The translations under genes and the position numbers were made by a program. This document shows positions 1 through 13,668 of a stretch of 13,689 bases of DNA, one piece after another (position 1 is the stretch's first letter; each line of letters begins with the position of its first letter). Source of the DNA: Candidatus Nanohaloarchaea archaeon (GTDB taxonomy: Archaea; Nanohalarchaeota; Nanosalinia; Nanosalinales; Nanosalinaceae); contig JBDGRE010000011.1 in NCBI GenBank assembly GCA_042218325.1, positions 1 through 13,689 of the forward strand, read 5' to 3'. The notes below the pieces were generated by a model. That model made no database searches. It was not told the DNA's origin and was given only the letters and a program-made list of their open reading frames with translations.

Positions 1-750
1 GACTTCGGGGATGCTGACCAGGTCATCAACGTTATCGGAGCACCGCAGAAATATCCGATGAAAGTAATCAAATACTCTCTGAAAGCTCTTGGATACGAGA
101 AAGAGGCGGAGAACTTTAGCCACTGCCACTTCAAGTTCGTCTACCTGCCAGGAAAAGTATCCTACTCAGGCCGGAAAGGAAACTGGGTAGGAAAACACGG
201 AGACGCAGTCCTGGAAAAATGCAAGGAACTCGCTTTGGAAGAGGTTGAGAAACGACATGAAGAGCTTTCCGATGAGAAGAAGCAGAAGATAGCTGATAAA
301 GTAGGAGTAGCGGCTGTACGATACTTCCTGCTGAAGTTCACTCGTGAGAAGGACATCGATTTCAGCTTTGAGAAGGCGTTAAGCTGGGAAGGTGACTCCG
401 GGCCGTACCTGCTTTACTCTACAGCACGTGCACATGGAATACTTGACAAGACAGAGATAGAGCCAGAGTTCACAGGGTATGAGGAAGATGTGGAGTTCGA
501 ACTGATTCGGGAACTTGACAAGTTTGAATCTGTAATGGAAAGCGGTTTCGTCTCTCAAGAGCCTGCCAAGTTGATCCATTATCTGAAAGGTTTGGCGGAG
601 AAGTTCAACAGCTTCTACCATAAATGTCCTGTGAAGGACGCAGAGACTGAAGAGCTTGCAAAATCACGAACGGCTATCACAGAAGCGTATGTGGAGGTTA
701 TGGAGGAAGGTTTGAACTTGCTTGGGATTGAGCCATTGGAGGAGATGTAA
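1..750 (+). CDS. argS: Arginine--tRNA ligase, C-terminal part (5'-truncated by window edge)
   Basis: Frame is open from base 1 (DFGDADQVINVIGAPQKYPMK...). Motifs: VINVIGxxQ, SGRKG (KMSKS-equivalent of ArgRS), AAVRYxxLK, FxFEKALSWEGDSGPYLLYxxAR, and DALR anticodon-binding domain ending FNSFYHKCPV...LNLLGIEPLEEM. Confidence 0.97.
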   Translation, partial: DFGDADQVINVIGAPQKYPMKVIKYSLKALGYEKEAENFSHCHFKFVYLPGKVSYSGRKGNWVGKHGDAVLEKCKELALEEVEKRHEELSDEKKQKIADKVGVAAVRYFLLKFTREKDIDFSFEKALSWEGDSGPYLLYSTARAHGILDKTEIEPEFTGYEEDVEFELIRELDKFESVMESGFVSQEPAKLIHYLKGLAEKFNSFYHKCPVKDAETEELAKSRTAITEAYVEVMEEGLNLLGIEPLEEM

Positions 751-763
751 TTTCTCTATTTTT

Positions 764-838
764 GGGTCTGTAGCTCAGTTGGGACAGAGCACCTCCCTTC
801 GGAGGAGGGTGTCGCAGGTTCAAATCCTGCCAGACTCG
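764..838 (+). tRNA. tRNA-Arg(UCG)
   Basis: Full cloverleaf: acceptor GGGTCTG/CAGACTC, D arm GCTC/GAGC with GGA (A20 Arg identity element), anticodon arm CCTCC-CT[TCG]GA-GGAGG (anticodon 799-801), T arm GCAGG-TTCAAAT-CCTGC, discriminator G. No intron, no encoded CCA. Confidence 0.97.
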
Positions 839-842
839 TCTT

Positions 843-917
843 GGGCTCGTAGCTCAGCTTGGACAGAGCGATCGGCTTCTAACCGATCGGTCGAGGGTTC
901 AAATCCCTCCGAGTCCG
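843..917 (+). tRNA. tRNA-Arg(UCU)
   Basis: Full cloverleaf: acceptor GGGCTCG/CGAGTCC, D arm GCTC/GAGC, anticodon arm ATCGG-CT[TCT]AA-CCGAT (anticodon 878-880), T arm GAGGG-TTCAAAT-CCCTC, discriminator G. Starts 4 nt after the first tRNA. Confidence 0.97.
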
Positions 918-1208
918 TTAATCCTGTAGTTTCCAGTGTTTTTCTTTGAGGTGGCTGCCTGAATCTTTTTCCTTTACTTCTACTTGGTTTTGTTGTTTCA
1001 TCCAGTTGAGGATTTCTGAGAGCAGTGTTCTGATGGTGTCTTCGGAGAGGTGTTCTACTTGTTCTTGCTTGCCTATGTGTTGCCGGATTTTTCGGTTGGA
1101 GACAAAGTCTTCGTCTTCCAGTTTATCTTTAATCAGTTTTCGCAACAGTGTAGGGGTTTCTGGTAAGTCTTTGTTTTCTTCGTAGTTGTTGAAGTTGTAG
1201 CCTGTCAT
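918..1208 (-). CDS. Small hypothetical protein, probable winged helix-turn-helix DNA-binding protein (96 aa)
   Basis: ATG start with TTTATAA about 30 nt upstream on the minus strand. Pattern helix-(FVSNRKIRQHI)-(LSEDTIRTLLSEILNWMKQQNQV)-beta hairpin ending KHWKL resembles a wHTH. Stop codon abuts the tRNA 3' end. Confidence 0.65.
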   Translation of the reverse strand: MTGYNFNNYEENKDLPETPTLLRKLIKDKLEDEDFVSNRKIRQHIGKQEQVEHLSEDTIRTLLSEILNWMKQQNQVEVKEKDSGSHLKEKHWKLQD

Positions 1209-1236
1209 TTGTAGCTGGAAAGGCCGGTATATCGGG

Positions 1237-1243
1237 TTATAAA
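1237..1243 (-). promoter_or_regulatory. Probable TATA box of the wHTH gene
   Basis: Minus strand reads GAAAACC-TTTATAA, about 30 nt upstream of the ATG at 1208; typical spacing for a leaderless or short-leader archaeal transcript. Confidence 0.55.
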
Positions 1244-1246
1244 GGT

Positions 1247-1292
1247 TTTCAAATTTGAAACGGTTCAGAAAACAGGTTTCAATATTGAAACC
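1247..1292. promoter_or_regulatory. Two palindromic operator-like boxes TTTCAA-WW-TTGAAA, 30 bp apart
   Basis: TTTCAAATTTGAAA at 1247-1260 (perfect 14-bp palindrome) and GGTTTCAATATTGAAACC at 1275-1292 (perfect 18-bp palindrome), located between divergent genes. Confidence 0.7.
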
Positions 1293-1364
1293 ATCCAGAT
1301 TTGTTTTCCGCCCATCTGTTGCTTACGGGTTAGCTTCTTAATGCGATATAGTACGGAGTGGTTT

Positions 1365-1718
1365 ATGTCTGAAGAACTTCCACGGTTCAAGATTTTCATC
1401 CGGCTCTTGCATCCTTTTCCTGAAGATTAGGCTGAGGAGTATCCGAACTTGGCTAAGAGCAGGGTTAGGTTGACTATCAAGCAGGTAGGTACTGAGAGGG
1501 ATGTCCGTGACTGGAGTGAAAGCCAGTATCGCCGTTTAGTGGAGAATACTTTGGATAAGGATATTAAGAGGAATCCTGACTATTTCCCTCTTGATCCTGA
1601 GTTAACAGGTGAAATGGGTTTTGATATTACTGTCTGGGATCGGAAGCAGGGAGAGATGACAGGCGTCCTGTTCAAAGATGAAGAAATGGATATACCTGAC
1701 AAATACCTGGATAACTAA
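1365..1718 (+). pseudogene. Hypothetical 117-codon gene interrupted by an in-frame TAG at 1428-1430 (ORF track shows only the 1449-1718 fragment)
   Basis: ATG at 1365 is in frame with the 1449 ORF: MSEELPRFKIFIRLLHPFPED*AEEYPNLAKSRVRL...KYLDN. A TATA-like CTTAAT lies about 25 nt upstream of 1365. The 1449 start is only a TTG. Confidence 0.6.
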
Positions 1719-1721
1719 AGA

Positions 1722-1887
1722 CTGTCAAACACCTACGCATAGGAGGTTTGCAGATATTGGTTACAAACACTGGTTTTGTGGATATGATCTGGTTATTTAG
1801 GGCTTAGTTTGCTTCGTGCACGCTCGTAGGCATATCACAGGGTGCTGTAACCACAAACCACCGGCATCTGTTTGAGATGGTGTTGGT
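1722..1887 (+). ncRNA. Candidate structured non-coding RNA (three consecutive stem-loop domains)
   Basis: Hairpin 1722-1753 (CTG.CAAAC.CCTA-cgca-TAGG..GTTTG.CAG). Long stem TGGTTACA(1758-65)/TGTAACCA(1846-53) encloses GATATG(1781-86)/CATATC(1831-36). Hairpin ACCGGCATC(1860-68)/GGTGTTGGT(1879-87). G-U pairs favour the + strand. No family recognised. Confidence 0.4.
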
Positions 1888-1940
1888 CAGGTTACTCGAG
1901 ATATGCTGTATAGTTCATCTGAATTGGTTTTCGCTGGGGC

Positions 1941-1971
1941 AAAAATACTTAACTGTTACTCTTAAGTAACA
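1941..1971 (+). promoter_or_regulatory. Probable promoter of the dikinase-like operon with downstream inverted repeat TGTTACT-N4-AGTAACA
   Basis: AAAAATACTTAA (1941-1952) about 25-30 nt upstream of ATG 1976, followed by a 7-bp inverted repeat at 1954-1971 between the TATA box and the start. Confidence 0.55.
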
Positions 1972-1975
1972 ATAT

Positions 1976-3382
1976 ATGGATGTCTACTGGATCGGGGAGC
2001 CTGAGACCGGTGTTTCTGTAGAAGATGTCGGCGGAAAGTCGATGAACGCTATCAGAGCGGCAAGGCTACTCAACGGTAGAGAAATCAACGGTCAGGAGAT
2101 AACTGTTCCTGACGGCTTTGCGGTCAACGGAGAACTCCAAGAAGAGTTCTTAGAAGAACAGAGATGGAAGCACGGATTTCTCGACAGACGTGATGCTATG
2201 AATGTTCTTAGACCTGAGGATGTTGATGACTGGAATTTGCCTCAGACTCATAAAGAAGAACTCCGTGAACACTATGAAAGACTAGAAGACCCTGTAGGAG
2301 TCAGAAGCTCAGGTGTAGCGGAGGACTCAGATGAGAACAACTTTGCAGGAAGATATGAAAGCGTAATTGGAATCACAGGTTCAGATGAACTGATGGAAGG
2401 AGTCTCCGAAGTGCTCGCTAGCCAGTTCAGTTCAAGAGTACAGCAGTACCAGATGGAAATCGGCGAAGAACAAGCTTCTGATCTCAGGCTTCTAATACAG
2501 GAGGCAAAGAACCCTGATGTTTCAGCAGTAGTAGACTCCCGTGCGGATAGCGAAGGCAGAGTAGGTTTTGACTTGAATGAAGGACTTCCTACGACTATCG
2601 TTGATGGTGAGTCCATAGATCAAGCTTTTGCAGATCTTGGAGGTTCGTTATTGGGAGGGTTCTTGGTTTATGATGAAGACGATGATTACTTCTCTAACCC
2701 TAACCGTGACACTAAACATGTTCTAGAAGACGGTGAATTGGTTGAGAGATCCACTGATGTAGAAGGATCTCTTGTTGAGAGCGAAGAGCTCGGAGCAGTC
2801 GTTGAGGTTGCCAGACTTCTTGAGGAGGTATCAGGAGAACCAGGAGACCGTTCAGCCAGAGATATGGAAGTAGGTTGGAATAAAGAAGATAATATAGTTT
2901 ATATTTTCCAAGATAGGCCTGTACCTGGTGAAGACGTGACTGAAGCCGAGGAATTGCCTGATATTGCTGAAGAGTATGTTGTCGCTGAGTCTCAGCAGGT
3001 TTCCGGAGGCCCTGAACTTGTCCACTACGAGGATATACCTGCGGTAGTTGTTGACGATTCGACTCCAAATCCTGGGCCGGATGAAGAGGCATACAACATC
3101 AAAGACTACGATCTAACAGAACTCGATGAGGAACTGGGAGAATACGTGCTGATAACGGAGAACTATAACGAGAGACTTCATGCTGACGCCGATCCTGAAG
3201 TTGTAGTTGGAACAGACTCTGGCTTTGGAGGACACCTGATAAACATACTTGGAAATGAGGGGGTCGATACAGAGTACATCAGCTTTCTGGGAGAAGATCT
3301 CAGCGAGATAGATACCTATGACGAAATCGGTGTAGCACTTAACGGCCTTGAAGGCCTTGTATACATGGAGGAAGATAACTGA
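1976..3382 (+). CDS. PEP synthase/PPDK-family dikinase-like protein: N-terminal ATP-grasp domain + degenerate swivelling phospho-His domain, no PEP/pyruvate-binding barrel (468 aa)
   Basis: PPDK_N motifs in order: VGGKSMN, VPDGFAV, VGVRSSGVAEDSDENNFAGRYES, LLIQE, GLPTTIVDG, RDMEVGW, IFQDRP. C-terminal GTDSGFGGH420LINILGNEG aligns to TxxGGxxSHAAIxARExG. Protein ends about 50 aa after the His. Confidence 0.85.
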   Translation: MDVYWIGEPETGVSVEDVGGKSMNAIRAARLLNGREINGQEITVPDGFAVNGELQEEFLEEQRWKHGFLDRRDAMNVLRPEDVDDWNLPQTHKEELREHYERLEDPVGVRSSGVAEDSDENNFAGRYESVIGITGSDELMEGVSEVLASQFSSRVQQYQMEIGEEQASDLRLLIQEAKNPDVSAVVDSRADSEGRVGFDLNEGLPTTIVDGESIDQAFADLGGSLLGGFLVYDEDDDYFSNPNRDTKHVLEDGELVERSTDVEGSLVESEELGAVVEVARLLEEVSGEPGDRSARDMEVGWNKEDNIVYIFQDRPVPGEDVTEAEELPDIAEEYVVAESQQVSGGPELVHYEDIPAVVVDDSTPNPGPDEEAYNIKDYDLTELDEELGEYVLITENYNERLHADADPEVVVGTDSGFGGHLINILGNEGVDTEYISFLGEDLSEIDTYDEIGVALNGLEGLVYMEEDN

Positions 3383-5559
3383 TGGTAGAGTTTGATTCCG
3401 TAACTATAAATGAAGATGAAAGAGATAGAGATCCTATAGCACACCCAGTAAGGGAGGAAGAAGAACTTGAGAGAGCTGTAGAGCAGATGAGTTCTGTCGA
3501 AGATGAGAATTTCGAGTCCGAGGTTCTGGCTCTTAGAAACAACTTAGACGAGTTCGTCAGAAGGCGTGTAGGCAACCACAACACGCATATTGGGCTGATG
3601 AATAATCCTACGGTCAACGAGGTAGAGATTGACGGAGAAAACTATCAAGTGGTCGGAGAGCGTTTCTTTGAGATGAACCAGTTCCCAGAGTTCGGTGATG
3701 TAGGTGAGATTAGATGGACTGCTCTCGCACCGCAGGACTCATGGGGCATGGAAACACCGATAAACAGAGGAGAACACGCAGTAGGAAGAGGAAGACAGAT
3801 CGAGGCCTACCAGGTCACACTTGATGGAGAACCTCTCAACCCCGGTGAAGTCGGAGCCCTCTCTCAGGATGTCAGGATTTCCCAGGAAACAGAACAGGAT
3901 TTTACACTGGACGCTCCTAGGATAATCGCTGAGTATGATTCGCTGACCGAGGCGGTCGAGAGCGAAAATATAACTCGGGAAGAGTTCGAGGAAGAGTTAA
4001 GATCTGCTCAGCATCGTGGCATGGTGACTGAAGACCTTGACATCACTTTGAAGGGCTGGATGTCCTTTATCGATACTAACGCAAGAGGTATTGCTGCTCT
4101 TGAACAGCTTGACGGGAGTCGGGAGACTGTCGACCTTGGAGGGTTCAGACCTTCTTATGTACCTCCTTTCGGTAGTTTGGAAGGTGCTGTGACTTCTTCA
4201 GGACGCCTGAGTTCCGCTATATTCAGTGATGGAGATGCTTTATTTGCTACAGGTTCAGATGCAGAGGTTGATTATGTTGAAGGAGTTCTGGATGTTGAAA
4301 ATGATGCTTACCGTGAAGAACTGGAAGCCATTATGGGCGATCTTGAGTCCGTAAATCTACATGACCAGCCTGGCGGCAGGATAGGACTGAGGGATGCTCT
4401 CGGTGTATTTATCGAGGGTTATGATGGCGGAGAGGCTGTCAGTATAGGAGAGAATGTTGAAAGAGGTAGCGACGAGGAGGACTATCTCCATGATCTCATA
4501 GATGAAGGACTTGCCGGTATAGAAGAGTCGAACCTGGAAGACATAACGATTTCTCTGGATGAGGAGTTGGAGCAGGAACTTCAGGAAATGGGTTACTCTG
4601 TAGAGGAGATTGAGCAACGTTTAGAAGAGGCATCCCAAGGCCTAACTGCTGCTGAAGATGATGGATTCATGTTCGGTGGTGGAGATTACAGTCTGAACTA
4701 TGAAGGTCTTGATGATCCTCTATACGAGCTCTTTGCTACTGAGCTTGAGGAGTTGAACAGAAGACAAGTCAATCCCGATGAAGACCGAGATATGGATGGC
4801 TCCGCTATAATGGTTCCTAATCTGATGCTCGTTGAATGCATGGATGAACTGGAGACTCACGGCTTTGACTGGGAAATGGTCTCCACATACAGACCAGATG
4901 GAGATGATGAGTTCTTCGGTGCCGACATAGAAGCCCAGTTTGAGGAAGAAAGAGAGGATCTCTGGGGAGATGTCGATTATTACGGTCATGAGGATATTTA
5001 CCAAGAGGGGAATATACGCAGTCCAAAGGAGATGAGCCGAGAGGTTCGGGGTCTCCTGAGAGCTATGGATGATGAAGATATTATACAGATAAATCAGAAA
5101 CAGATACCTGACGCTGTAAAGCTTCAGGTCGATACTTCAAGCGATCACTATGAACCGCTTCAGGAGGCACTGCCGGACTCAGGAGAAAGCTTTGAGAATG
5201 GCGAAGCCACCTACGAAGTAGGGCCTGAAGAGAGCCAAGCAGACTCCCTACTACTGACAGTTATGCAGGACAACGAAGCCGTTGAAGACTATGAAATCGA
5301 TGAAACAGAGGAATGGGAGTTAGAATACAACAGAGAAGCTATGGCTATGTTCGACTATGAAATAGATGCCAGCATCGACTCAGTTAGAATAGCAGACGAA
5401 CCAGTTGTCCTTGCATCACTTTACGTCACAGAAGAAATGGAATATGAATCCAACGAGGAATTGGAAAGAGCATCAGAAGCAATAAGTCCTTTCAACGGAG
5501 AAAATATTCCCTATGAATCAGACAGAGCGACATTTGAAACCGAATTTCAATTAGACTAA
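3382..5559 (+). CDS. Large, extremely acidic hypothetical protein (725 aa)
   Basis: Long ORF translationally coupled to the upstream gene (TGATG overlap, GGAGG upstream). Only 4 Lys by manual count. No signal peptide, TM segment or recognisable motif seen. Confidence 0.85.
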   Translation: MVEFDSVTINEDERDRDPIAHPVREEEELERAVEQMSSVEDENFESEVLALRNNLDEFVRRRVGNHNTHIGLMNNPTVNEVEIDGENYQVVGERFFEMNQFPEFGDVGEIRWTALAPQDSWGMETPINRGEHAVGRGRQIEAYQVTLDGEPLNPGEVGALSQDVRISQETEQDFTLDAPRIIAEYDSLTEAVESENITREEFEEELRSAQHRGMVTEDLDITLKGWMSFIDTNARGIAALEQLDGSRETVDLGGFRPSYVPPFGSLEGAVTSSGRLSSAIFSDGDALFATGSDAEVDYVEGVLDVENDAYREELEAIMGDLESVNLHDQPGGRIGLRDALGVFIEGYDGGEAVSIGENVERGSDEEDYLHDLIDEGLAGIEESNLEDITISLDEELEQELQEMGYSVEEIEQRLEEASQGLTAAEDDGFMFGGGDYSLNYEGLDDPLYELFATELEELNRRQVNPDEDRDMDGSAIMVPNLMLVECMDELETHGFDWEMVSTYRPDGDDEFFGADIEAQFEEEREDLWGDVDYYGHEDIYQEGNIRSPKEMSREVRGLLRAMDDEDIIQINQKQIPDAVKLQVDTSSDHYEPLQEALPDSGESFENGEATYEVGPEESQADSLLLTVMQDNEAVEDYEIDETEEWELEYNREAMAMFDYEIDASIDSVRIADEPVVLASLYVTEEMEYESNEELERASEAISPFNGENIPYESDRATFETEFQLD

Positions 5560-5589
5560 AATCTATCTATAAATATAATCTCTGAGACC

Positions 5590-6255
5590 ATGCGAAGAAA
5601 CACTGAGAAACCCGCAAATGTTCGAGACCAAAGTGAGAGAGCAGAAGAAATCGCAGGATTTATCGAAGAAGTCGAACATCCGCATATAGATGAATTTGTC
5701 GATAGAGTTGCTGAAGGCGGGAAAGTTCTTGACCTTGGCTGTGGACATGGCAAACACGTGGACTACTTCATCCAGCACGGACTCGAAGCAGAAGGCGTAG
5801 ACTTAGCGGAAGGTATGCTGGATGAAAGAGAAAGGAGAGGGAAGAAAGGTACTTACTACGAGCAGGACTTCAGAAACCTTCCAGAGGACAAATTCGGCGA
5901 TAATGAGTACGATGCTCTCTGGGCTAACGCCGCACTGAAATTCTACCCAAAGCAGGAGATGAAGAAAACTTTACAGGAGTGGGATCGAGTTCTCAAACCG
6001 GGTGGAGAGTTCTACACCTCATTCAAAGTAAAAGGAAGCCAAGAAGACTATGACTGGCTACAGGGAGATGAAGATAGTAACGAGTTCGTCCAGAGAGATG
6101 GTGAAGATTATCCGAGATACCTTCTTGACTCAGTAGAAGAAGCTGAACAGATGCTTGAAGACCAGGGCTATGAAGTCCAGGAAACCTATGTCAGCGACGA
6201 CCACACCGACTACGATATTCAGGTCGTTAACCTGTTCGCAAGGAAGGAGGAGTAA
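5590..6255 (+). CDS. Class I SAM-dependent methyltransferase (221 aa)
   Basis: Motif I KVLDLGCGHG, post-I GVDLAEGML, QDFRNL, YDALWANAAL, RVLKPGG. Confidence 0.92.
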   Translation: MRRNTEKPANVRDQSERAEEIAGFIEEVEHPHIDEFVDRVAEGGKVLDLGCGHGKHVDYFIQHGLEAEGVDLAEGMLDERERRGKKGTYYEQDFRNLPEDKFGDNEYDALWANAALKFYPKQEMKKTLQEWDRVLKPGGEFYTSFKVKGSQEDYDWLQGDEDSNEFVQRDGEDYPRYLLDSVEEAEQMLEDQGYEVQETYVSDDHTDYDIQVVNLFARKEE

Positions 6256-6258
6256 ATA

Positions 6259-7170
6259 ATGAGTTCTGAAGCTTACCCCGAAGATCTTGTAGAAAAGGCA
6301 GGAGAGCACGAGTTTGAAGATATTAGAGATGAAGCTGTCGAGGATCTAACGGAAATGCTCGAAGTAGACAGCGAAGCAGTACCTGAAATACCTGTTGAAA
6401 CTGAAGAAAGAGGAACTACAGGTGGTGCAAGTTACGAAAACGGCACTATGACCGTAGACCTCGCACCAGACCTCTCAGACGAACCAAGCTGGGTAGAAAC
6501 AGAACATCTACAAGCAGAAGGCGTCTATGAAGAAGTAAACCATATTCTCGCAGAAGACATAATTGAACACGAGACAGGACAGCAGAGAACAAGTAGAGAA
6601 GACCGGACTTACTGGGATAACGCAGCCAACGAACTGCTCGGAACAATCTACAAATGGGGAGATAACTGGGGATTCAATCGACCTTTAGAGAAAGCAGATA
6701 CAAGACTTTCGAAAGCATCAGAAAGACTCGACCAATCCCTGGCAGCTATAAACAGAGACTTTGAAGACCGAGACCTATCCGAAGACGAGAACCTTGACGA
6801 ATACTGTAACAGACACGGAAAAGTAGAACAGGAACTCCTAGGAGACATAATACACTTCATAGGTTACAAGGTCTCAGAAGAGGCAAAGGATCAGGATTAT
6901 GATCCTGCTGAAGTAGTCAGGATGAGCTACGACCAGCTGAGAGAAGAATTTTCGGAAGAAGTAGAACAAGCAGAAGAACAACTCAGAGAAGAATACGGAG
7001 TCCTTGTAGACCTTGATAGAAAAATACAGAGTGAAGAAGGATTCGGATTCTTCGTACAGACCGGTGAAAACGAATACAAGTCCAGAGGAGTTCTCGAAGG
7101 CTACGAACAACACGGCAGACAATTCTACACCTGGGGAGAAGACGAACTGCCTGAAAGGGGGAGGAACTAA
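6259..7170 (+). CDS. Acidic hypothetical protein, possible zincin/gluzincin-like fold with EExxH variant motif (303 aa)
   Basis: GGASYENGTMTVDL strand pair, then VYEEVNHIL (E91-E92-x-x-H95, HExxH with first H as E), then a helix with AANE125LLG as candidate third ligand. Starts 3 nt after the MTase stop, preceded by AGGAGG. Confidence 0.55.
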   Translation: MSSEAYPEDLVEKAGEHEFEDIRDEAVEDLTEMLEVDSEAVPEIPVETEERGTTGGASYENGTMTVDLAPDLSDEPSWVETEHLQAEGVYEEVNHILAEDIIEHETGQQRTSREDRTYWDNAANELLGTIYKWGDNWGFNRPLEKADTRLSKASERLDQSLAAINRDFEDRDLSEDENLDEYCNRHGKVEQELLGDIIHFIGYKVSEEAKDQDYDPAEVVRMSYDQLREEFSEEVEQAEEQLREEYGVLVDLDRKIQSEEGFGFFVQTGENEYKSRGVLEGYEQHGRQFYTWGEDELPERGRN

Positions 7171-7886
7171 TGGCTCTTGATGAGCATGCTCGACAGGAAT
7201 GGCCTGAAACTATAGAAATAGATGGTGAAACCTACGAAGAAGAATCTCTGGGAGCATACAAAAGAGTCTACAGAAGCCTTGATGAGGAAAATGTTGGAGT
7301 AGTTTCAAGTCGAGGAGCTACTTTTGAAGAACAGGCACTACACACAGCAGGGATAATCCAAAACGAGCAAGTTCAGAGAAACAACGGAATAACCACCGCA
7401 ACCACTTATACGCCAGCTAAAGCCGAGGTTGACGGGCAGGCTTATCCTGCTCTTGTCGGAAGTTTCAGAGATGATCTTGTAACTCACGACGAACTGGACG
7501 AAATGCTTGAAGACAAAGGTTTTCAGGAAAGAGTTTACAGGGAAATCTTCCAACCTGTCAAAGAACTTGCGGAAGAAGGCAAGACTACTGCTTCGCCGCT
7601 TGACTTCATAAACATCGATAACAGAAATAGCTCCAATCTGATATTTGACACTCGAAATTTTGGATATAACCCTGCTACAGACGGTTTAGAAGTATTGGAT
7701 AATGGCGAACTTGAACCAAACGGCTACAACGCCTCAGCTACTGTTCCTGAAGCAGACCTCTCCGATCTCCCTTACGCCGAGCCAGAAGACTTCGCATACC
7801 AACGACCACACGATTCACTGGAAGAATTTATCGAAGACAACAAGGTCGACCAGAAAGCCCAGCAAATGATGTCAGACTTGTTTTAG
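7170..7886 (+). CDS. Acidic hypothetical protein, probable degenerate protein-kinase-like (PKL) fold (238 aa)
   Basis: SLGAYKRVYRS (Gly-loop/beta2-like), DTRNFGY (catalytic-loop Asn) and LEVLDNG (DFG-like) in correct order. Beta3 Lys and canonical DxxxxN spacing not evident. TAATG coupling to upstream gene. Confidence 0.55.
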   Translation: MALDEHARQEWPETIEIDGETYEEESLGAYKRVYRSLDEENVGVVSSRGATFEEQALHTAGIIQNEQVQRNNGITTATTYTPAKAEVDGQAYPALVGSFRDDLVTHDELDEMLEDKGFQERVYREIFQPVKELAEEGKTTASPLDFINIDNRNSSNLIFDTRNFGYNPATDGLEVLDNGELEPNGYNASATVPEADLSDLPYAEPEDFAYQRPHDSLEEFIEDNKVDQKAQQMMSDLF

Positions 7887-7934
7887 TATGTAATGTGGTT
7901 TTCCAGAAATTCTTTCTGAAGATTACAGGTTATC

Positions 7935-7942
7935 TTATTAAA
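7935..7942 (+). promoter_or_regulatory. Probable TATA box of the TA-like operon
   Basis: TTATTAAA about 25 nt upstream of ATG 7967. Confidence 0.5.
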
Positions 7943-7966
7943 GTGAAGAGGTAATTTTCAGGTGTT

Positions 7967-8788
7967 ATGACTTCAGCAGTTGAGGCAGGAATGCCGGAGG
8001 AAAATCCTTTTGGATCGGTTAGAAGCGAGTACGAGAAGCTGAAGAAGATGTATCCAGAAGGAGAGGAGCTAATAGAGGAAGCTGTAAATGTAGTAGCAGA
8101 GGAAAATAGGGAGGAGCTGTTTCAGAACTCCGAAGAATACGTCATAGAACTTCTAAACAGTAATGAAGAGTTCATTAAAAAGATGGACGAGGTCTATGGA
8201 GTTTCCGAAGCCAGTCAATCAGAACTTGTAAGCATACTAAACCAGCTATACTTCGTAGTCAGAAACTCCGTAAGAGGGATGAAAGAGAACCTAGATGACT
8301 ACATTCTCGAACAAGAAGCAAGTTCCGATGCAGTACTTGTAGAGAAAATATTGGATATTTTCGGCAGAGTATTCCACTATGCCTTTGATGAGAGAAACCA
8401 GGAGCCGGTAGAAAGCGTCTCCAAAGCATTTCTGCTATTTGTAAGGCTTATCGCTGCAAGTGAAGGAAAGCTTGATAGAAAAGAACTTTGGAAGGATGCG
8501 GTTCATGTCTCGAAAATGGTGTTAGATGATTTACAGGATGTCAACTTTTTGGTCAGACTCTATAGTTCGGTAGACCAAGTGGCTGCTGAGGAGGCTGAGA
8601 GAGTTGTACGTATCGAGAGGTCTGCCGATCTTTACTTGGAGAGGAAGATGACTGTCTCGAAGGCCGCTGAAGTAGCACAACTTCCTTCTTCAGAACTTCG
8701 GAGTATTTACCAGGATATTGGAGTACCTCTGGAGAGTATTTCTATGAACAAGCAAATGTTGAAGGATGGAATAGATGTCTTACCGTAG
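7967..8788 (+). CDS. Putative antitoxin: long helical N-terminal region + C-terminal UPF0175-like HTH (273 aa)
   Basis: C-terminal ADLYLERKMTVSKAAEVAQLPSSELRSIYQDIGVP fits the UPF0175 pattern (LY..G.IS..KAAE.AG.S..EF...L...GV). Overlaps the downstream PIN gene by 14 nt. Confidence 0.75.
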   Translation: MTSAVEAGMPEENPFGSVRSEYEKLKKMYPEGEELIEEAVNVVAEENREELFQNSEEYVIELLNSNEEFIKKMDEVYGVSEASQSELVSILNQLYFVVRNSVRGMKENLDDYILEQEASSDAVLVEKILDIFGRVFHYAFDERNQEPVESVSKAFLLFVRLIAASEGKLDRKELWKDAVHVSKMVLDDLQDVNFLVRLYSSVDQVAAEEAERVVRIERSADLYLERKMTVSKAAEVAQLPSSELRSIYQDIGVPLESISMNKQMLKDGIDVLP

Positions 8789-9272
8789 CCATATAGTAGC
8801 TGATGCCTCGTTCCTCATAGCATTCGACAAGTGTGATGCTTTCAAGCACTTGAAGAAATATGCGGAGCAGAAGAACTTGCAGATACATACAACGGAGAGA
8901 ATCAAATCTGAGCTTCAGACCGTTGATGAAGATAATATAGATTTTCTGGAAGTAGAGAAGGTACATCTAACCAACTACAAGTACGATAAATCCAAGCTCA
9001 GTAAATCAGATGCATCAGTTCTGAAGATTGCGGAAGAGAACGACTGGATTATAGCAGAAGATGAACGCTACCTCTACATGGCTGCGAAAGAAAAAGACCT
9101 GGAAATAACTCGATCTGCGTCCATGCTAATGAAACTACTATCTGAGGGAATCATAAACAAGAAAGAATACGGCCAGATCGCCGAATGCTTCATTAAAGAC
9201 CTCAACCTCGAAAAGGAAATAGAAGAGGAGATTAAGAACTACCCTGAGAAAATAGAAAAACAAGAGGTCTGA
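8775..9272 (+). CDS. PIN-domain protein, VapC/DUF3368-like putative ribonuclease toxin (165 aa)
   Basis: IVADASFLI (first catalytic Asp), TTERIKSEL (Glu), LSKSDASVLKIA, IIAEDER, and a C-terminal LMKLLSEGII helix typical of DUF3368-type PINs paired with UPF0175. Confidence 0.85.
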   Translation: MSYRSHIVADASFLIAFDKCDAFKHLKKYAEQKNLQIHTTERIKSELQTVDEDNIDFLEVEKVHLTNYKYDKSKLSKSDASVLKIAEENDWIIAEDERYLYMAAKEKDLEITRSASMLMKLLSEGIINKKEYGQIAECFIKDLNLEKEIEEEIKNYPEKIEKQEV

Positions 9273-9521
9273 GAAATAAATTATCAAGCTGAAGCACCGA
9301 ACTGTTTACAGTAAACCGTGGTTCTATTAGGTCTGGAGCTTTGGCAGGTATTAGGTTCGCCGTTTTTCACCTTACTTCTTCGTGTCTGCCCTGGTAAGCT
9401 GCGGTGATTTCGACCGTTCTATTACGGTTTTTCTTGGTGTCTGGAGTAAACGAGTTTCTTGAACTCAGAATTTATCGGAGAACCCATTAGGTTTATAGTG
9501 TGATATAGTGCCCGAATTTCT

Positions 9522-9755
9522 ATGGGCTTTGACACTGGCACAACGAGTATTCATATTACGAAGCAGGATAAGAAGCTGCTGGAACGGAACAACCTGGGTA
9601 ACAAGCAGGTGGGAGAGGCTTACCACACTGCTGTCGAGGAGATGGACAGGCACAGACAGCTTCGACAAGAAAAGAAGAAAGAACTCCGTAAACAGGTGAC
9701 GGAACTGAAGAAAGAATGCGAGAAGTGGGGAATAGACATCTACGACCTGGTTTAG
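9522..9755 (+). CDS. Small ribbon-helix-helix-like protein with C-terminal coiled coil (77 aa)
   Basis: TTSIHITKQDKKLLE...GEAYHTAV resembles archaeal RHH/antitoxin N-termini (TTI.I..E....L......GESY..V). TTTATAG at 9492-9498 lies about 25 nt upstream of the ATG. Confidence 0.6.
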   Translation: MGFDTGTTSIHITKQDKKLLERNNLGNKQVGEAYHTAVEEMDRHRQLRQEKKKELRKQVTELKKECEKWGIDIYDLV

Positions 9756-10600
9756 ATAAACTGTCCTGCAACTGCGTAGCTGATTATGAATATCACAAGT
9801 AGTAGGGCTGCTTGAAGTGAAAGTTTCAGAATCTTTCCGATTATTTTGAGTTTCCAGGAGATCAGCTTCTTGATTTTCCGGTAGGCTGATTTTACTGGTT
9901 TCTTGATGCTTATGCTAGGCAAGGATACAGAAGGGCTAGAGTTTTCTGCTTTATCTGTTTCTTCTTTTTCTGGTATCTGAAACTGTTCTTCATCAAACTC
10001 GAAATGTATGGACTTGTCGCCTTCTATTTCTACCATTCTCTGCTTGACCTGTTCACCTGTAGATACTTTGACTTGGTAGCTTCCTTCGGGTACAAGCTGG
10101 TTGAATTCTCCTGAGCTACTGGCGACAGTTTCATCGTTTTCCTCGTCAACTACCGCTATTTTAGGGTTGAATCCTAATTCGGTTAGGTTCGTGGTTATTT
10201 CAAGGTTTACGAGACTTTCTCGGTATTCTCTGACTTGTTTACCTACAGTAAGAGATTCAAATGAGTCATCGAGTTTGTCCAAGTCTCCCTGTATGTCTTC
10301 AGCTTTTCCCTTATAGTCTTCTTCGAGCAGGTATTTTGTGGTCTGTTTGAAGGCGTCTGCGAGCACTTGATTTACGTCTTCCGACTCAAGGTTTTCTTGG
10401 TCTTTGAGTTGTTGTACTGCTGCTTTTAGCCATCTGTTAGCGGGGTGGCTGGAAATCTGGACTTTTCTCATCTGCTTGGTCTTGCCGTACATAGAGACCT
10501 TGAAGGTTGTTCTCTGCTTCGATCCTAGATCCTTGAGCCTGTTTTCTATATGGTTCAGGTGCTTCGTGCGGAGTTCGTGTAGATTAATGTCTTCTCCCAA
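9752..10600 (-). CDS. Hypothetical C-terminally membrane-anchored protein (282 aa)
   Basis: TTG start preceded by GGTGA. Helical N-terminal region, a PEGA/CarboxypepD_reg-like beta stretch (VPEGSYQVKVSTG...VEIEGDKSIHFEF), a Ser/Pro linker, a basic amphipathic segment and a terminal TM helix (AALLLVIFIISYAVAG). Confidence 0.75.
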   Translation of the reverse strand: MGEDINLHELRTKHLNHIENRLKDLGSKQRTTFKVSMYGKTKQMRKVQISSHPANRWLKAAVQQLKDQENLESEDVNQVLADAFKQTTKYLLEEDYKGKAEDIQGDLDKLDDSFESLTVGKQVREYRESLVNLEITTNLTELGFNPKIAVVDEENDETVASSSGEFNQLVPEGSYQVKVSTGEQVKQRMVEIEGDKSIHFEFDEEQFQIPEKEETDKAENSSPSVSLPSISIKKPVKSAYRKIKKLISWKLKIIGKILKLSLQAALLLVIFIISYAVAGQFI

Positions 10601-10606
10601 GTGTCT

Positions 10607-11467
10607 TCACCTGTCAAATTCGATTCTATCTCCTGTGGCTGTTGGCGGTTTTGTGCATTTGAGGTAAGTTCCGTAGTAGAGGTCGAACTGGTCTGACTTC
10701 GGTTTCTTTTCTACTTCTCCTGTTACAGTGTATTCGTTGGCGTGTTGGAAACTCATCGCATCAGAGTACTGATCGCATTCCAGTTTGATCTTGTAGCCTC
10801 CTCTGGTCTGTAGAAGCGGTTCAAGTGAAAGTGTATTGTAGTAGCCTGTTACAGTTACTTCTTCTCCCTCGTAGTCGTTTGGATTAAGTGCTACCTGTTT
10901 GAGTGTGGTCTTTGTCGGCCCTATGCTTTCGCCTTCTTTGGCCCAGTCTTCACACTGGATACTTGCTACTTCTTCAGCTGTATCGGGTACGCAGCTTCCT
11001 CCAGCGTCTTGTAGGCATTTTCCTACAGGCACTTTCTGGTCGAATCCGTAGTAGTATTCGTTTCCATCTACCTGACATTCACATCGCTTGTACGTTCCTA
11101 CTTCTCCCTTGACCTTGATTTCTTCGTTGTGGGGTACTCGGCAGCTCTTGATGTAAACTCTGGAATCGTTTTCGCCTTTAAGGTAGCTTTCTCCTACGCC
11201 TCTGGCGAGATTTATTGTTCCTGTTGTTCCTTTAACCGTCATCTTCTGTCCGTCGTATTGTTCTATATTTGATGTGATCTGTTCTGGAGTCTTGACAGGG
11301 TTAAGTGCGTCTGTCAGCTGTGACAGGTCGTACTGGTATTCGGAAGGCTGGAATATATCGGAGAAGTTATCTGTTGGTGTTGCTGCTTGTAGCCCGATTC
11401 CGAGTAGTATTACGGCTAATATCCATTTGTATGGTATCCCGAAGAATTGATTTTTCCGCCTCCCCAT
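10607..11467 (-). CDS. Secreted or membrane-anchored protein with two OB-fold-like repeats and 8 Cys (286 aa)
   Basis: Basic N-terminus plus hydrophobic segment (WILAVILLGIGLQAA). Internal repeats TPEQITSNIEQYDGQKMTVKGT and TTLKQVALNPNDYEGEEVTVTGY are typical starts of extracellular OB-fold domains. Confidence 0.75.
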   Translation of the reverse strand: MGRRKNQFFGIPYKWILAVILLGIGLQAATPTDNFSDIFQPSEYQYDLSQLTDALNPVKTPEQITSNIEQYDGQKMTVKGTTGTINLARGVGESYLKGENDSRVYIKSCRVPHNEEIKVKGEVGTYKRCECQVDGNEYYYGFDQKVPVGKCLQDAGGSCVPDTAEEVASIQCEDWAKEGESIGPTKTTLKQVALNPNDYEGEEVTVTGYYNTLSLEPLLQTRGGYKIKLECDQYSDAMSFQHANEYTVTGEVEKKPKSDQFDLYYGTYLKCTKPPTATGDRIEFDR

Positions 11468-11562
11468 ATGCGTTCATTACAGAGTTTTTCAGGCATCTTT
11501 TTGATGGTTTTTGAGCAAGACTTCAGATTAACTATTTTAGAATGGCTAAGAAAACTCTGTTT

Positions 11563-12087
11563 ATGCCTGGCACAGTTTTTCTTGAAGGAGAAAACATCAA
11601 CCTCAGAACGGTTGAAGAAGAGGACATAGAGTTCCTGAGAGATGGAGTTAACCATCCAGATGTACGTGTTCACATGGGTAATAGGACTCCTCAAAATCTG
11701 GAGAACGAAGAAGAGTTCTTCGAAGATCAAGTTTGCGGAGATGATACTCTTGATCTCCTTATCTGTAAAGATAACGAAGCCAAAGGGATTATAACCTTGA
11801 TGCTTAATGACACGGAGAGAGTAGCTGAGATCGGTATCTGGCTACATCCTGACTATCACGGAAATGGTTATGGTACAGAAGCATCTGAAATACTGATTGA
11901 TCACGCTTTTTACCAGTTAAACTACCACAAAATTTGGGCTTATGTACATGCCGATAACGAACCCTCACAAAACATTTGGAAAAAGCTTGGTTTCCAGAAA
12001 GAAGGAAAACTCCGCAAACACACCTATACAGAAGGGGAATACAAGGACGTAATCCCCTTCGGTCTTCTAAAAGGTGAGTGGGAATGA
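11563..12087 (+). CDS. RimJ/RimL-family GNAT N-acetyltransferase
   Basis: INLRTVEEED, AEIGIWLHPDYHGNGYGTEA (motif A), LNYHKIWA, NEPSQNIWKKLGFQKEGKLRKH. Start placed at ATG 11563 (MPGTVFLEG, typical haloarchaeal N-terminus); 11542 is the alternative. Confidence 0.93.
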   Translation: MPGTVFLEGENINLRTVEEEDIEFLRDGVNHPDVRVHMGNRTPQNLENEEEFFEDQVCGDDTLDLLICKDNEAKGIITLMLNDTERVAEIGIWLHPDYHGNGYGTEASEILIDHAFYQLNYHKIWAYVHADNEPSQNIWKKLGFQKEGKLRKHTYTEGEYKDVIPFGLLKGEWE

Positions 12088-12617
12088 CCGAAACCAAATT
12101 TATGGAATGGGATGGCGTACTACTCAGACCGGTAGAAAAAGAAGACAAACAGTTTCTTCGTGATCTCGTACAGCATCCTGAAGTACGGAATACTATCGGA
12201 AGAGCACCTAAACCAGCGAATCTTAAGGAACAAGAGAACTATGTAGAAGAGATAAGCGAAGATGAGGACGCAGCCTACTTCCTAATAGAATATGAAGGTG
12301 AGAAAGCTGGGACAATTTCAATCCACGGGCTGGAAAACGACTATAGGAGAGGCGAATTCGGAATCTCGATCCATCCCGACTTTCATAACAAAGGAATAGG
12401 TACAAAATCAGTTCAGATGATAGTCCAGTATGCCTTCGACACCTTGAATGTGCACAAGGTAAGAGGCGGATACCTCGAACACAATCCGCCTTCGAAGAGG
12501 ATAATGGAGAAAGCAGGTATGCAGGAAGAAGGACAGGAACGTCACTACAAGTATGTAGACGGCGAATGGAAAAACGTCACCTGGATGAGCATACTGGAGG
12601 ACGAATACTATGACTAA
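12084..12617 (+). CDS. RimJ/RimL-family GNAT N-acetyltransferase (second paralogue)
   Basis: LLRPVEKED, GEFGISIHPDFHNKGIGTK, LNVHKV, NPPSKRIMEKAGMQEEG, WMSILEDEY. ATG 12084 overlaps the upstream TGA (ATGA) with AGGTGA at 12072-12077. Confidence 0.93.
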   Translation: MTETKFMEWDGVLLRPVEKEDKQFLRDLVQHPEVRNTIGRAPKPANLKEQENYVEEISEDEDAAYFLIEYEGEKAGTISIHGLENDYRRGEFGISIHPDFHNKGIGTKSVQMIVQYAFDTLNVHKVRGGYLEHNPPSKRIMEKAGMQEEGQERHYKYVDGEWKNVTWMSILEDEYYD

Positions 12618-13668
12618 AGAATTTACACTTCCGCCAACTTTAGAAAAAGGCGACAAAGTGGCTGTTATGGCGACATCAGCAGGAATTAAGGATAGATTTC
12701 CAGCAGCGTTCGAAAAAGGAATAGAAAGATTAGAAGAAAGATTCGAACTTGAACCAGTAGTTTATGATACTGCCGAGAAAGATACTGAACACCTGAATGC
12801 TAATCCTGAAGAGAAAGCGGAAGAGTTCATGGAGGCATTTGAAGACTCTGAAATCAAAGGAGTAATACCTGTATCAGGGGGAGATGAAGAACTAAGAGTC
12901 CTAAAACATCTTGATCCAGAGAGGTTGAAAGATAGTCCAACTCGTTTCTACGGAATAAGCGACAACACTAACCTGCACATGTATCTCTGGAACTTGGGAA
13001 TACAGAGCTTCTACGCAGGGCAAATACTGCCAGACCTCATGAGCGAAGGGGAAATCGGAGAATACACCTACAAACACCTAGAAAGAGCCTTCTTTGAAGA
13101 TAGCTTAGGTAAAGTCGAAGCGTCCAATCAATTCACAGATGAGTTCGTTGATATTGAAGCAGATGAAATAACAGATGATAGGAAGAGATACGAAAGTTCT
13201 GGCTGGGAGTTCTGGAACTTCAACGATGAAATAGTTGAAGGTAGACTGTTCGGAGGTTGTTTCGAGATAATGGACTGGCAGATGGCAACTCAGAAATACC
13301 TTCCAGACCAAGAAGAACTTGAAGGAACAATTCTTGCCTTAGAAACCTCTGAAGAAGCACCAAGCGAAACTACAGTAAAGCGGTGGCTCATGTGTCTTGG
13401 AGAAAATGGAATACTTGACAAATTCTCAGCTATACTGGTAGGAAGACCGATAAGAAAGCCATTACACGGAGAAGAAAGAACTGAGGAAGAAAAACAGGAG
13501 TACCACGAAGACCAGAAAGAACGCATTAAGGAAGAAATCAAGCGATACAGTCCTGAAACTCCTGTTGTCTTCGATGTAGACTTCGGACATACCGATCCAA
13601 AGCTTCCGCTACAGCTTGGAGGCAAGGTAGAACTGAAACCGGCGGAAGAACAGATAGAGTTTGAGTGA
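12610..13668 (+). CDS. S66 family peptidase (LD-carboxypeptidase / MccF-like) (352 aa)
   Basis: PPTLEKGDKVAVMATS N-terminus, SGGD, nucleophile motif FYGISDNT, EGRLFGGC, LALETSEE (Glu), DVDFGHTDP (His). 8-nt overlap with the upstream GNAT. Confidence 0.93.
   Translation: MTKEFTLPPTLEKGDKVAVMATSAGIKDRFPAAFEKGIERLEERFELEPVVYDTAEKDTEHLNANPEEKAEEFMEAFEDSEIKGVIPVSGGDEELRVLKHLDPERLKDSPTRFYGISDNTNLHMYLWNLGIQSFYAGQILPDLMSEGEIGEYTYKHLERAFFEDSLGKVEASNQFTDEFVDIEADEITDDRKRYESSGWEFWNFNDEIVEGRLFGGCFEIMDWQMATQKYLPDQEELEGTILALETSEEAPSETTVKRWLMCLGENGILDKFSAILVGRPIRKPLHGEERTEEEKQEYHEDQKERIKEEIKRYSPETPVVFDVDFGHTDPKLPLQLGGKVELKPAEEQIEFE

Follow-up and report, generated by a model that had tools for sequence, protein, structure and literature searches.

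VadK (Rv1127c) of Mycobacterium tuberculosis is described as a truncated pyruvate phosphate dikinase (PPDK) with an ATP-grasp domain and a phosphohistidine but no barrel, which autophosphorylates His422 with ATP and Mg2+, interacts with methylcitrate-cycle enzymes, and gains solubility when its operon partner Rv1126c is co-expressed, a wash in 2 M NaCl being needed to separate the two (10.1101/2025.10.30.685616; PMC13400623). Rifampin phosphotransferase (RPH) is reported as a dikinase with an ATP-grasp domain, a swivel histidine, and a non-metabolic acceptor (PMC4844700), and phenylphosphate synthase of Thauera aromatica and Desulfatiglans anilini as an enzyme of split subunits that moves phosphate from ATP through a conserved histidine to an acceptor other than pyruvate (PMC7500099). 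Here we analyzed a cluster of five genes (g1 to g5) in a stretch of 13,689 nucleotides (nt), hereafter the window, which comprises positions 1 to 13,689 of contig JBDGRE010000011.1 from a Candidatus Nanohaloarchaea archaeon (assembly GCA_042218325.1; genome size 1.07 Mb, 35 contigs). A preliminary description had presented the five genes as one candidate system. We found that the conserved and undescribed part of the cluster is the g1-g2 pair, and that this pair is a rare, patchy, and accessory trait encoding a truncated dikinase and a partner protein.

Residues 16-330 of g1 make up a PPDK_N ATP-grasp domain (E = 2.6e-25, 89.9 bits; Pfam cut-off 27), and the last 90 residues of the protein can be aligned to the phosphohistidine swivel domain, with His420 (GFGGH) in the same column as the TSH histidine of a true phosphoenolpyruvate (PEP) synthase and of the fusion protein P0051 described below. 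We assign the g1 C-terminus to the swivel domain by this alignment; Pfam calls the corresponding PEP-utilizers domain in three of four family relatives of g1 and in three of four relatives from Woesearchaeota/Nanoarchaeota. His420 is invariant in 7/7 and 10/10 aligned sequences, as are the ATP-site residues G19, G20, K21, R110-S112, and Q175, and the motifs GGK, RSS, and VQE are invariant in 10/10. No Pfam match to PEP-utilizers_C, the PEP/pyruvate TIM barrel, was found in either g1 or g2; the sole PF02896 match in the genome lies on contig C1, and the complete PEP synthase of the same genome (835 amino acids, aa) is encoded at C1:151837-154029. The best NCBIfam and PDB matches of g1 are PEP synthases, all far under equivalog cut-offs, and PPDK models (NF004531 / TIGR01828 type) are absent from its NCBIfam matches at E up to 0.1. 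Two g1 relatives (loci L006 and L017) match PPDK models at 1e-7 to 1e-8 and PEP synthase models at 1e-43 to 1e-63. Models of rifamycin-inactivating phosphotransferase (1.5e-10) and of PigC/RedH ligases (~1e-19) also match g1, far below their cut-offs. Judged by these model scores, g1 is a truncated dikinase of the PEP-synthase type, not of the PPDK type.

The partner, g2, belongs to no Pfam, NCBIfam, or PADLOC family. Its N-terminal domain (g2N) is followed by a long acidic remainder, of which the last ~45 residues form a short conserved C-terminal motif in the alignment; the whole protein has an aspartate plus glutamate (D+E) fraction of 0.26 and an isoelectric point (pI) of 4.05. Relatives from Woesearchaeota (324-372 aa) are without the acidic middle and the C-terminal part. 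An AlphaFold2 model of residues 1-265, built from 22 aligned sequences, reached a pLDDT of 83.8 and a pTM of 0.82, and a 172-residue core of g2N modeled alone reached a pLDDT of 87.3. In the model, two helices lead into an antiparallel sheet of seven strands (~70-147); a long helix follows (154-170), and the domain closes with a winged-helix-like end (172-231). In a fold search of the kind that the preliminary description had called for, VIA-align, which searched 48,161 chains, aligned 54-60 residues of the 172-231 end to MntR, ScaR, and MarR-type regulators (Z 5.0-5.8, root-mean-square deviation (rmsd) 1.9-2.8 Å), Z values <8 being common per the tool's own note. VIA-align found winged-helix matches in g2N for residues 172-231 only, and its best result for the core alone was helices only (Z 5.0, rmsd 3.7 Å, 64 residues aligned). 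With a threshold of E = 0.001, Foldseek against the PDB matched neither the 265-residue model nor the 172-residue core, its best rows having E ~0.1 and TM <=0.2. A profile search of PDB sequences with g2N gave a best E of 0.49. Such misses are no proof of a new fold. Conserved residues of g2N are His66, Pro76, Gln89, Gly92, Phe96, Asp106, and Glu131, with His66 (NH..AIR..N.P motif) nearly invariant in the 22- and 25-sequence alignments. Viral contigs held no g2N relatives, and a tblastn search of plasmids gave no match to P0050, a free-standing g2N protein. As a separate observation, the 427-aa g2N-like library protein P0046 carries part of a metallo-beta-lactamase-fold domain at its C-terminal end, and in genome G015 a gene of the same fold stands divergently beside the g1-like gene (L007 12289-13062), a second, weak association that might hint at a hydrolase step.

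Linkage of the two genes extends well beyond the window. A search with g2 found homologues in 4/40 related genomes, conserved over the first 250-380 residues only, and all four have a 440-486-aa PPDK_N protein encoded upstream of the g2 homologue, directly so in three; in the other (L007 of G015), one 238-aa open reading frame (ORF), unrelated to g4 or g5, lies between the g1-like and g2-like genes. In the window's phylum, g1-like and g2-like genes are linked in all six assessable loci (adjacent in L006, L008, L009, L020, and L023), a count from which L024 (1270 nt) was excluded as too short. The metagenome contig L020 carries an overlapping pair with 88% (g1) and 67% (g2) identity to that of the window in entirely different surroundings. 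In G056 the pair stands at the contig start, and the G062 contig is too short to judge. The pair recurs in metagenome-assembled genomes (MAGs) whose records carry the titles Woesearchaeota or Nanoarchaeota. In 4/5 of these loci, the gene for a g2N homologue of 324-372 aa neighbors one for a 450-482-aa protein with PPDK_N and swivel domains, one ORF separating the two in L015, and the gene order is opposite to that in the window's phylum. The surroundings of these loci are housekeeping genes, such as enolase and exosome genes in L017 and ribosomal proteins in L016. Two observations on the neighborhoods stand apart from the linkage count. In L017 (6363-7505, Nanoarchaeota-titled MAG), the pair directly follows enolase, which makes PEP, and exosome RNase PH subunits, a placement that might be a coincidence or the trace of an earlier link to PEP metabolism. 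Immediately upstream of the pair in L008 (4077-6608, G019:C18) lies a complete PEP synthase with an extra C-terminal winged helix (DUF2582, 2.7e-13), so that two dikinases stand together there, each with a winged-helix association.

The two genes also occur as one. P0051 is an 839-aa natural fusion with a PPDK-type front half (TIGR01828, 1e-117) and the swivel histidine, after which g2N occupies residues 588-832. This g2N segment is assigned by hhalign with a probability of 99.95% (E 1.7e-37), and it shares 57% identity with the free-standing P0050. The position of g2N in the fusion is that of the PEP/pyruvate barrel in PEP synthase. Among 1.84 billion representative proteins, a profile search found 48 g2N relatives, some of them short and non-halophilic; the profile kept the full P0006 (742 positions vs ~265), and the matches to the N-terminal domain are clear while the count is possibly affected. 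By genome, the g2N profile detected relatives in 7/70 genomes of the window's phylum (G000 included), often in one of several species of a genus, and in 2 of the 251 genomes sampled from the phylum to which G070 belongs, counting G070 itself. In one genome of the Woesearchaeota/Nanoarchaeota phylum (G149:C10:101565-103371), two g2N-like matches stand in tandem and contain 2 and 1 in-frame TAA codons; they could be broken copies or point to another reading of TAA.

Paired complex modeling, another of the checks proposed earlier, favored an interaction. The g1-g2 complex scored 0.68 (median of three runs: 0.73, 0.30, and 0.68), compared with 0.01 for the best of three controls; the score mark was reached by 58/80 solved complexes and by 2/110 mismatched pairs, a calibration that is only rough here given our use of custom alignments. 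Agreement between the runs extends to at least 63% of contacts, with a partner pLDDT of at least 71. The predicted interface joins g1 residues 5-35 and 281-289 with g2 residues 104-107, 147-174, and 208-212, and the g1 stretch 5-35 includes a subfamily-specific IGxP motif. To our knowledge no like complex has been described, and memory of a solved structure is therefore an unlikely source of the model. The prediction supports binding of g2 to g1.

Set against the described systems, g1 comes closest to VadK. By its published description, VadK has the same length range (~470-490 aa) and two-domain build as g1 and likewise no PEP/pyruvate barrel, and the catalytic histidine has almost the same position, His422 in VadK and His420 in g1. 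A gene for a small or medium-sized partner protein adjoins both; the partner is described as sticking to VadK, whereas the g1-g2 complex is a predicted one. The two also differ in origin and host, since VadK derives from PPDK while PEP-synthase models give the best scores for g1 and its relatives in DPANN, and VadK belongs to an actinobacterium and g1 to a halophilic DPANN archaeon. The PPDK-type fusion P0051 suggests that g2N may be related to Rv1126c. With the PEP synthase PpsA and with PPDK, g1 has in common the ATP-grasp (PPDK_N) domain and the swivel histidine, and presumably the chemistry from ATP to phosphohistidine, and P0051 shows their same domain order of ATP-grasp, swivel, and third domain. 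Unlike PpsA and PPDK, g1-g2 is without the PEP-utilizers_C barrel and has as third domain a module that is unrelated and encoded as a chain of its own. Phenylphosphate synthase, as far as it is described, resembles g1-g2 in having separately encoded subunits. In that enzyme, His569 is reportedly located on the substrate-binding alpha subunit and ATP binding on another subunit (attributed to work by Schmeling et al. in 2004), whereas His420 is on the ATP-grasp chain g1, and g2 has no PEP-utilizers match. Genes annotated as 'phenylphosphate synthase' without the carboxylase are mentioned in a DPANN metagenome paper (PMC8091004) and may be of the g1-g2 kind. RPH, according to its description, shares the ATP-grasp domain and swivel histidine with g1, but it is a single chain with a RIF-binding domain, which g1 does not have and which g2N does not resemble in the PDB searches.

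The remaining three genes of the cluster behave differently. A neighborhood comparison across the window's phylum and other DPANN, put forward earlier as a check on the cluster, bore out the g1-g2 linkage but not one that takes in g3, g4, or g5, whose homologues were found in 0/11 other loci (6 of the window's phylum and 5 from Woesearchaeota/Nanoarchaeota); in L020 none occurs within 8 kb on either side. Enzyme-like assignments had been made for four of the five products, and these held in outline: g1 as a PPDK_N protein, g3 as a methyltransferase, g5 as a modeled kinase-like fold, and g4 as weakly zincin-like in a low-confidence model, with no HEXXH motif. The g3 product is a generic class I S-adenosylmethionine methyltransferase (Methyltransf_25 7.7e-18, over the cut-off; Methyltransf_11 1.9e-17) whose GCGHG at residue 50 agrees with the GxGxG motif, and it reached no NCBIfam equivalog. 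In PADLOC, the sole match of g3 is to the methyltransferase portion of mad2 (1.1e-14), g4 scores 0.013 to a restriction-enzyme model, and g1, g2, and g5 have no match. No family was assigned to g4, which has no HXXEH motif either. Its ESM Atlas model is of low confidence (pLDDT 0.53) and gives TM by query of 0.28-0.48 to M48, SprT-like, M1, M61, M78, and MATCAP clusters, under the tool's naming bar. Relatives of g4 number 4 among 5.8 billion clusters, with E92, H95, E99, and H199 as invariant residues; a search of 40 related genomes turned up one relative, whose neighbors are an integrase, a restriction-modification pair, and a HEPN gene. The g5 model in the ESM Atlas (pTM 0.78) gives TM of 0.50-0.58 to APH, HipA_C, and Pkinase clusters and a feature score of 0.96 to unnamed Atlas clusters, and the product is thus modeled as a small protein-kinase-like fold, with K31 (AYKRVY) and D177 (DNGE) as candidate catalytic residues. 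D177 is invariant among aligned relatives (row L012, on the wrong strand, was disregarded), and no Pfam kinase family matched g5. An assignment of g5 as a guanylate kinase was rejected as spurious (Guanylate_kin 7.2e-4; 19.7 bits, below the cut-off of 25.2; no GxxxxGK[ST] P-loop). In G019:C19, a g5 homologue with 60% identity is preceded by LemA and an M48 peptidase, the latter with no similarity to g4, and is directly followed by homologues of the GNAT-GNAT-S66 genes of the window. There, four intervening genes (7967-11467) put these genes 3.6 kb past g5, and in G023 the GNAT-GNAT-S66 block is present and g5 is not. No relatives of g4 or g5 were found in viral contigs.

All five genes occur together solely in near-identical strains, represented by contigs of sequencing runs X3 and X4. 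Record 13 of X3 spans the junction of g2 and g3. X4 has separate contigs of similar depth for g1-g2 (1939-5537) and for g3-g5 (5673-7873, 93% identity), the latter continuing for 427 nt without fit to the window. No contig of X3, X4, or X5 covers 8227-9140, and little or none covers 10055-11425, which signifies lack of cover only.

Taken together, we consider it probable that the cluster is a mosaic whose conserved functional unit, g1 with g2, works as a VadK-like truncated dikinase of two subunits, with phosphate moving from ATP to His420 and on to an acceptor by way of g2. ATP would be bound in the ATP-grasp domain of g1, and its beta-phosphate would be moved to His420 on the swivel domain with release of AMP and phosphate, which is the established chemistry of the family. 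Attached to g1 through its conserved N-terminal domain, g2 would let g2N supply the acceptor site, which is the most likely role of g2N because the P0051 fusion puts it at the position of the substrate barrel of PEP synthase; the phosphohistidine would then swing over and phosphorylate an acceptor bound by or located on g2. Autophosphorylation, the transfer to an acceptor, and the nature of this acceptor are what we infer here, and g3, g4, and g5 would be neighbors with separate histories that need not act with the pair. Several results weigh against this reading. The PEP-utilizers model of Pfam has no match on the g1 of the window at E up to 0.1, g2N is a domain without a recognizable catalytic fold or motif, and L018 has a g2N homologue with no g1-like gene on the visible side. 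One of the three complex runs stood at 0.30, and the interface involves the N-terminal ATP-grasp part and not the swivel domain, so that the model is silent on the docking of the histidine. For the relatives P0054 (of g4) and P0062 (of g5), the source is the same and the contig in each case is a single one of 5598 nt, which hints that g4 and g5 possibly form a pair of their own. Co-transcription and co-operation of all five genes in this species also stay conceivable, because g1-g2 and g3-g5 co-occur in near-identical strains.

The same evidence has been weighed under other readings. We regard it as unlikely that g1 is a VadK-like regulatory histidine kinase with g2 as its protein target or phosphorelay partner, not as a catalytic subunit, the phosphate of His420 passing to a residue of g2 (His66 being the candidate) and altering binding by the winged helix and acidic tail. 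VadK itself is described as a histidine kinase acting via protein partners and not on pyruvate (10.1101/2025.10.30.685616), and the near invariance of His66, the winged-helix-like module at the end of g2N, and the stable g1-g2 binding supported by the complex model would all agree with such a relay. However, the substrate-domain position of g2N in the fusion fits a catalytic subunit as well, the predicted interface involves neither the swivel domain nor His66, and the winged-helix match is weak. A broader reading, in which the pair is the archaeal face of an ancient, undescribed two-part phosphotransfer machine, seems to us distinctly unlikely; the barrel-less front half would be of the PpsA type in DPANN and of the PPDK type in P0051-like proteins and perhaps in VadK-Rv1126c. 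Its dedicated partner module with the winged helix would be a new kind of acceptor domain, which either phosphorylates a macromolecule (a nucleic acid or protein, for example, and not a metabolite) or binds one when switched by phosphate. As a special case of the two-subunit dikinase that we prefer, the pair might be an accessory enzyme like RPH, with g2N binding an antibiotic, toxin, or xenobiotic of the hypersaline community that is inactivated by phosphorylation. RPH is described with the same ATP-grasp and swivel-histidine chemistry (PMC4844700), the sub-threshold matches of g1 to the rifamycin-inactivating phosphotransferase and PigC/RedH models point the same way, and the patchy distribution of the pair is as in accessory genes; nonetheless, g2N is unlike the RIF-binding domain or any solved chain, the domain order differs from that of RPH, and the loci from Woesearchaeota/Nanoarchaeota are in housekeeping surroundings and not in resistance islands. 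We rate this case as quite improbable.

The preliminary description proposed that all five genes belong to a single macromolecule-modification system, or else make up a set of effectors that a symbiont directs against its host, a proposal that we now find very improbable. Its observations of the locus itself were accurate, as all five ORFs are co-directional and tightly packed with the 1-nt overlaps and the 30-nt and 3-nt gaps it gave, and this packing, with two one-base overlaps and a single plausible promoter, is what favors a joint function, together with the co-occurrence of the genes in near-identical strains from other samples and the chance that g4 and g5 relatives share a contig in a more distant organism. 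Against it, g3, g4, and g5 are missing from all 11 other loci with the pair, including that of the relative with 88%/67% identity (L020), g5 goes with other genes in G019, PADLOC gave no match beyond a generic methyltransferase domain, and viral contigs held no relatives. The earlier statement that no product has a signal peptide or transmembrane helix was borne out, with no hydrophobic stretch in g1-g5 (maximum Kyte-Doolittle 19-residue mean <=1.02). This counts against the effector idea, for which we found no evidence of secretion or of host action.

The features of the locus are given in Table 1. All five products are very acidic (pI 4.05-4.46, D+E 0.22-0.27), which fits a salt-in halophile.

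Table 1. Coordinates of genes, domains, and other features in the window
Feature	Position (nt)	Strand	Remarks
argS (arginyl-tRNA synthetase), 3' end	1-750		Upstream of cluster
tRNA-Arg, anticodon TCG	763-840		Directly after argS
tRNA-Arg, anticodon TCT	842-918		Second tRNA-Arg
Promoter-proximal stretch of g1	1941-1971	+	Read from sequence
g1	1976-3382	+	ORF, 468 aa
g2	3382-5559	+	ORF, 725 aa; TGATG, 1-nt overlap with g1
g2 N-terminal domain (g2N), residues 1 to ~245	3382-4116	+	Conserved in all relatives
g2 remainder	4117-5559	+	Very acidic, poorly conserved middle and C-terminal motif
g3	5590-6255	+	ORF, 221 aa; 30-nt gap after g2
g4	6259-7170	+	ORF, 303 aa; 3-nt gap after g3
g5	7170-7886	+	ORF, 238 aa; TAATG overlap with g4
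GNAT-GNAT-LD-carboxypeptidase (S66) genes	11542-13668		Homologues follow g5 in G019

Upstream of g1, the operator-bearing promoter named in the preliminary description stood in part. An A/T-rich TATA-like box (1941-1952) precedes the g1 ATG, and an 18-nt imperfect palindrome with 7-bp arms (TGTTACT-CTTA-AGTAACA, 1954-1971) lies directly before it. However, by our own estimate ~0.5 palindromes of this size are expected by chance in 800 nt, and in L020, where ~40 nt 5' of the g1 ATG align with the window and nothing farther upstream does, the left half of the palindrome is kept and the right arm is not. An operator function of 1954-1971 is thus a possibility. A scan for bacterial-type promoters and terminators gave shuffle-level results, a type of scan ill-suited to archaea. 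Farther upstream, argS is directly followed by two tRNA-Arg genes, a synthetase beside its own substrates. The same-genus genome G001 has argS in common with the window and shares no window sequence past position 752, and no att-like repeat or direct repeat of the tRNA-Arg 3' end was found in 700-11600. Two near-identical 16-bp palindromes, GTTTCAAATTTGAAAC and GTTTCAATATTGAAAC, lie 30 nt apart at 1246-1291, in the long non-coding stretch between a minus-strand ORF (918-1208) and the ORF 1449-1718, neither of which has a Pfam family; by appearance they look like paired sites for a dimeric regulator.

Downstream, two overlapping genes (7967-9272; 273 and 165 aa) follow g5. The 273-aa protein has a weak antitoxin-like C-terminus (UPF0175 0.007; PADLOC PDC-S70 0.0038), and the two genes may have been inserted as a toxin-antitoxin-like unit that now separates g5 from the GNAT-GNAT-S66 block. 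On the minus strand at 9752-11467, two further genes encode products with one hydrophobic segment each, a 282-aa protein with a C-terminal anchor and a Cys-rich 286-aa protein with an N-terminal signal or anchor, both probable surface proteins of the symbiont.

The five-gene 'system' is probably a strain-level mosaic, which shifts attention to two genes, not five. Recognition of truncated dikinases as regulators is very recent (VadK, 2025-2026), and the proteins that partner them have yet to be studied. A truncated dikinase with a partner is known already as a kind; here it comes with a partner domain that no library recognizes and that is confidently modeled without a recognizable relative. 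With the pair found in two DPANN phyla, in reversed order, as a natural fusion, and with a predicted interface, g1-g2 offers a testable archaeal example. If the acceptor were found, it would give a function to a protein family now without annotation, and could reveal how symbionts with reduced genomes employ a histidine-phosphate carrier beyond central metabolism.

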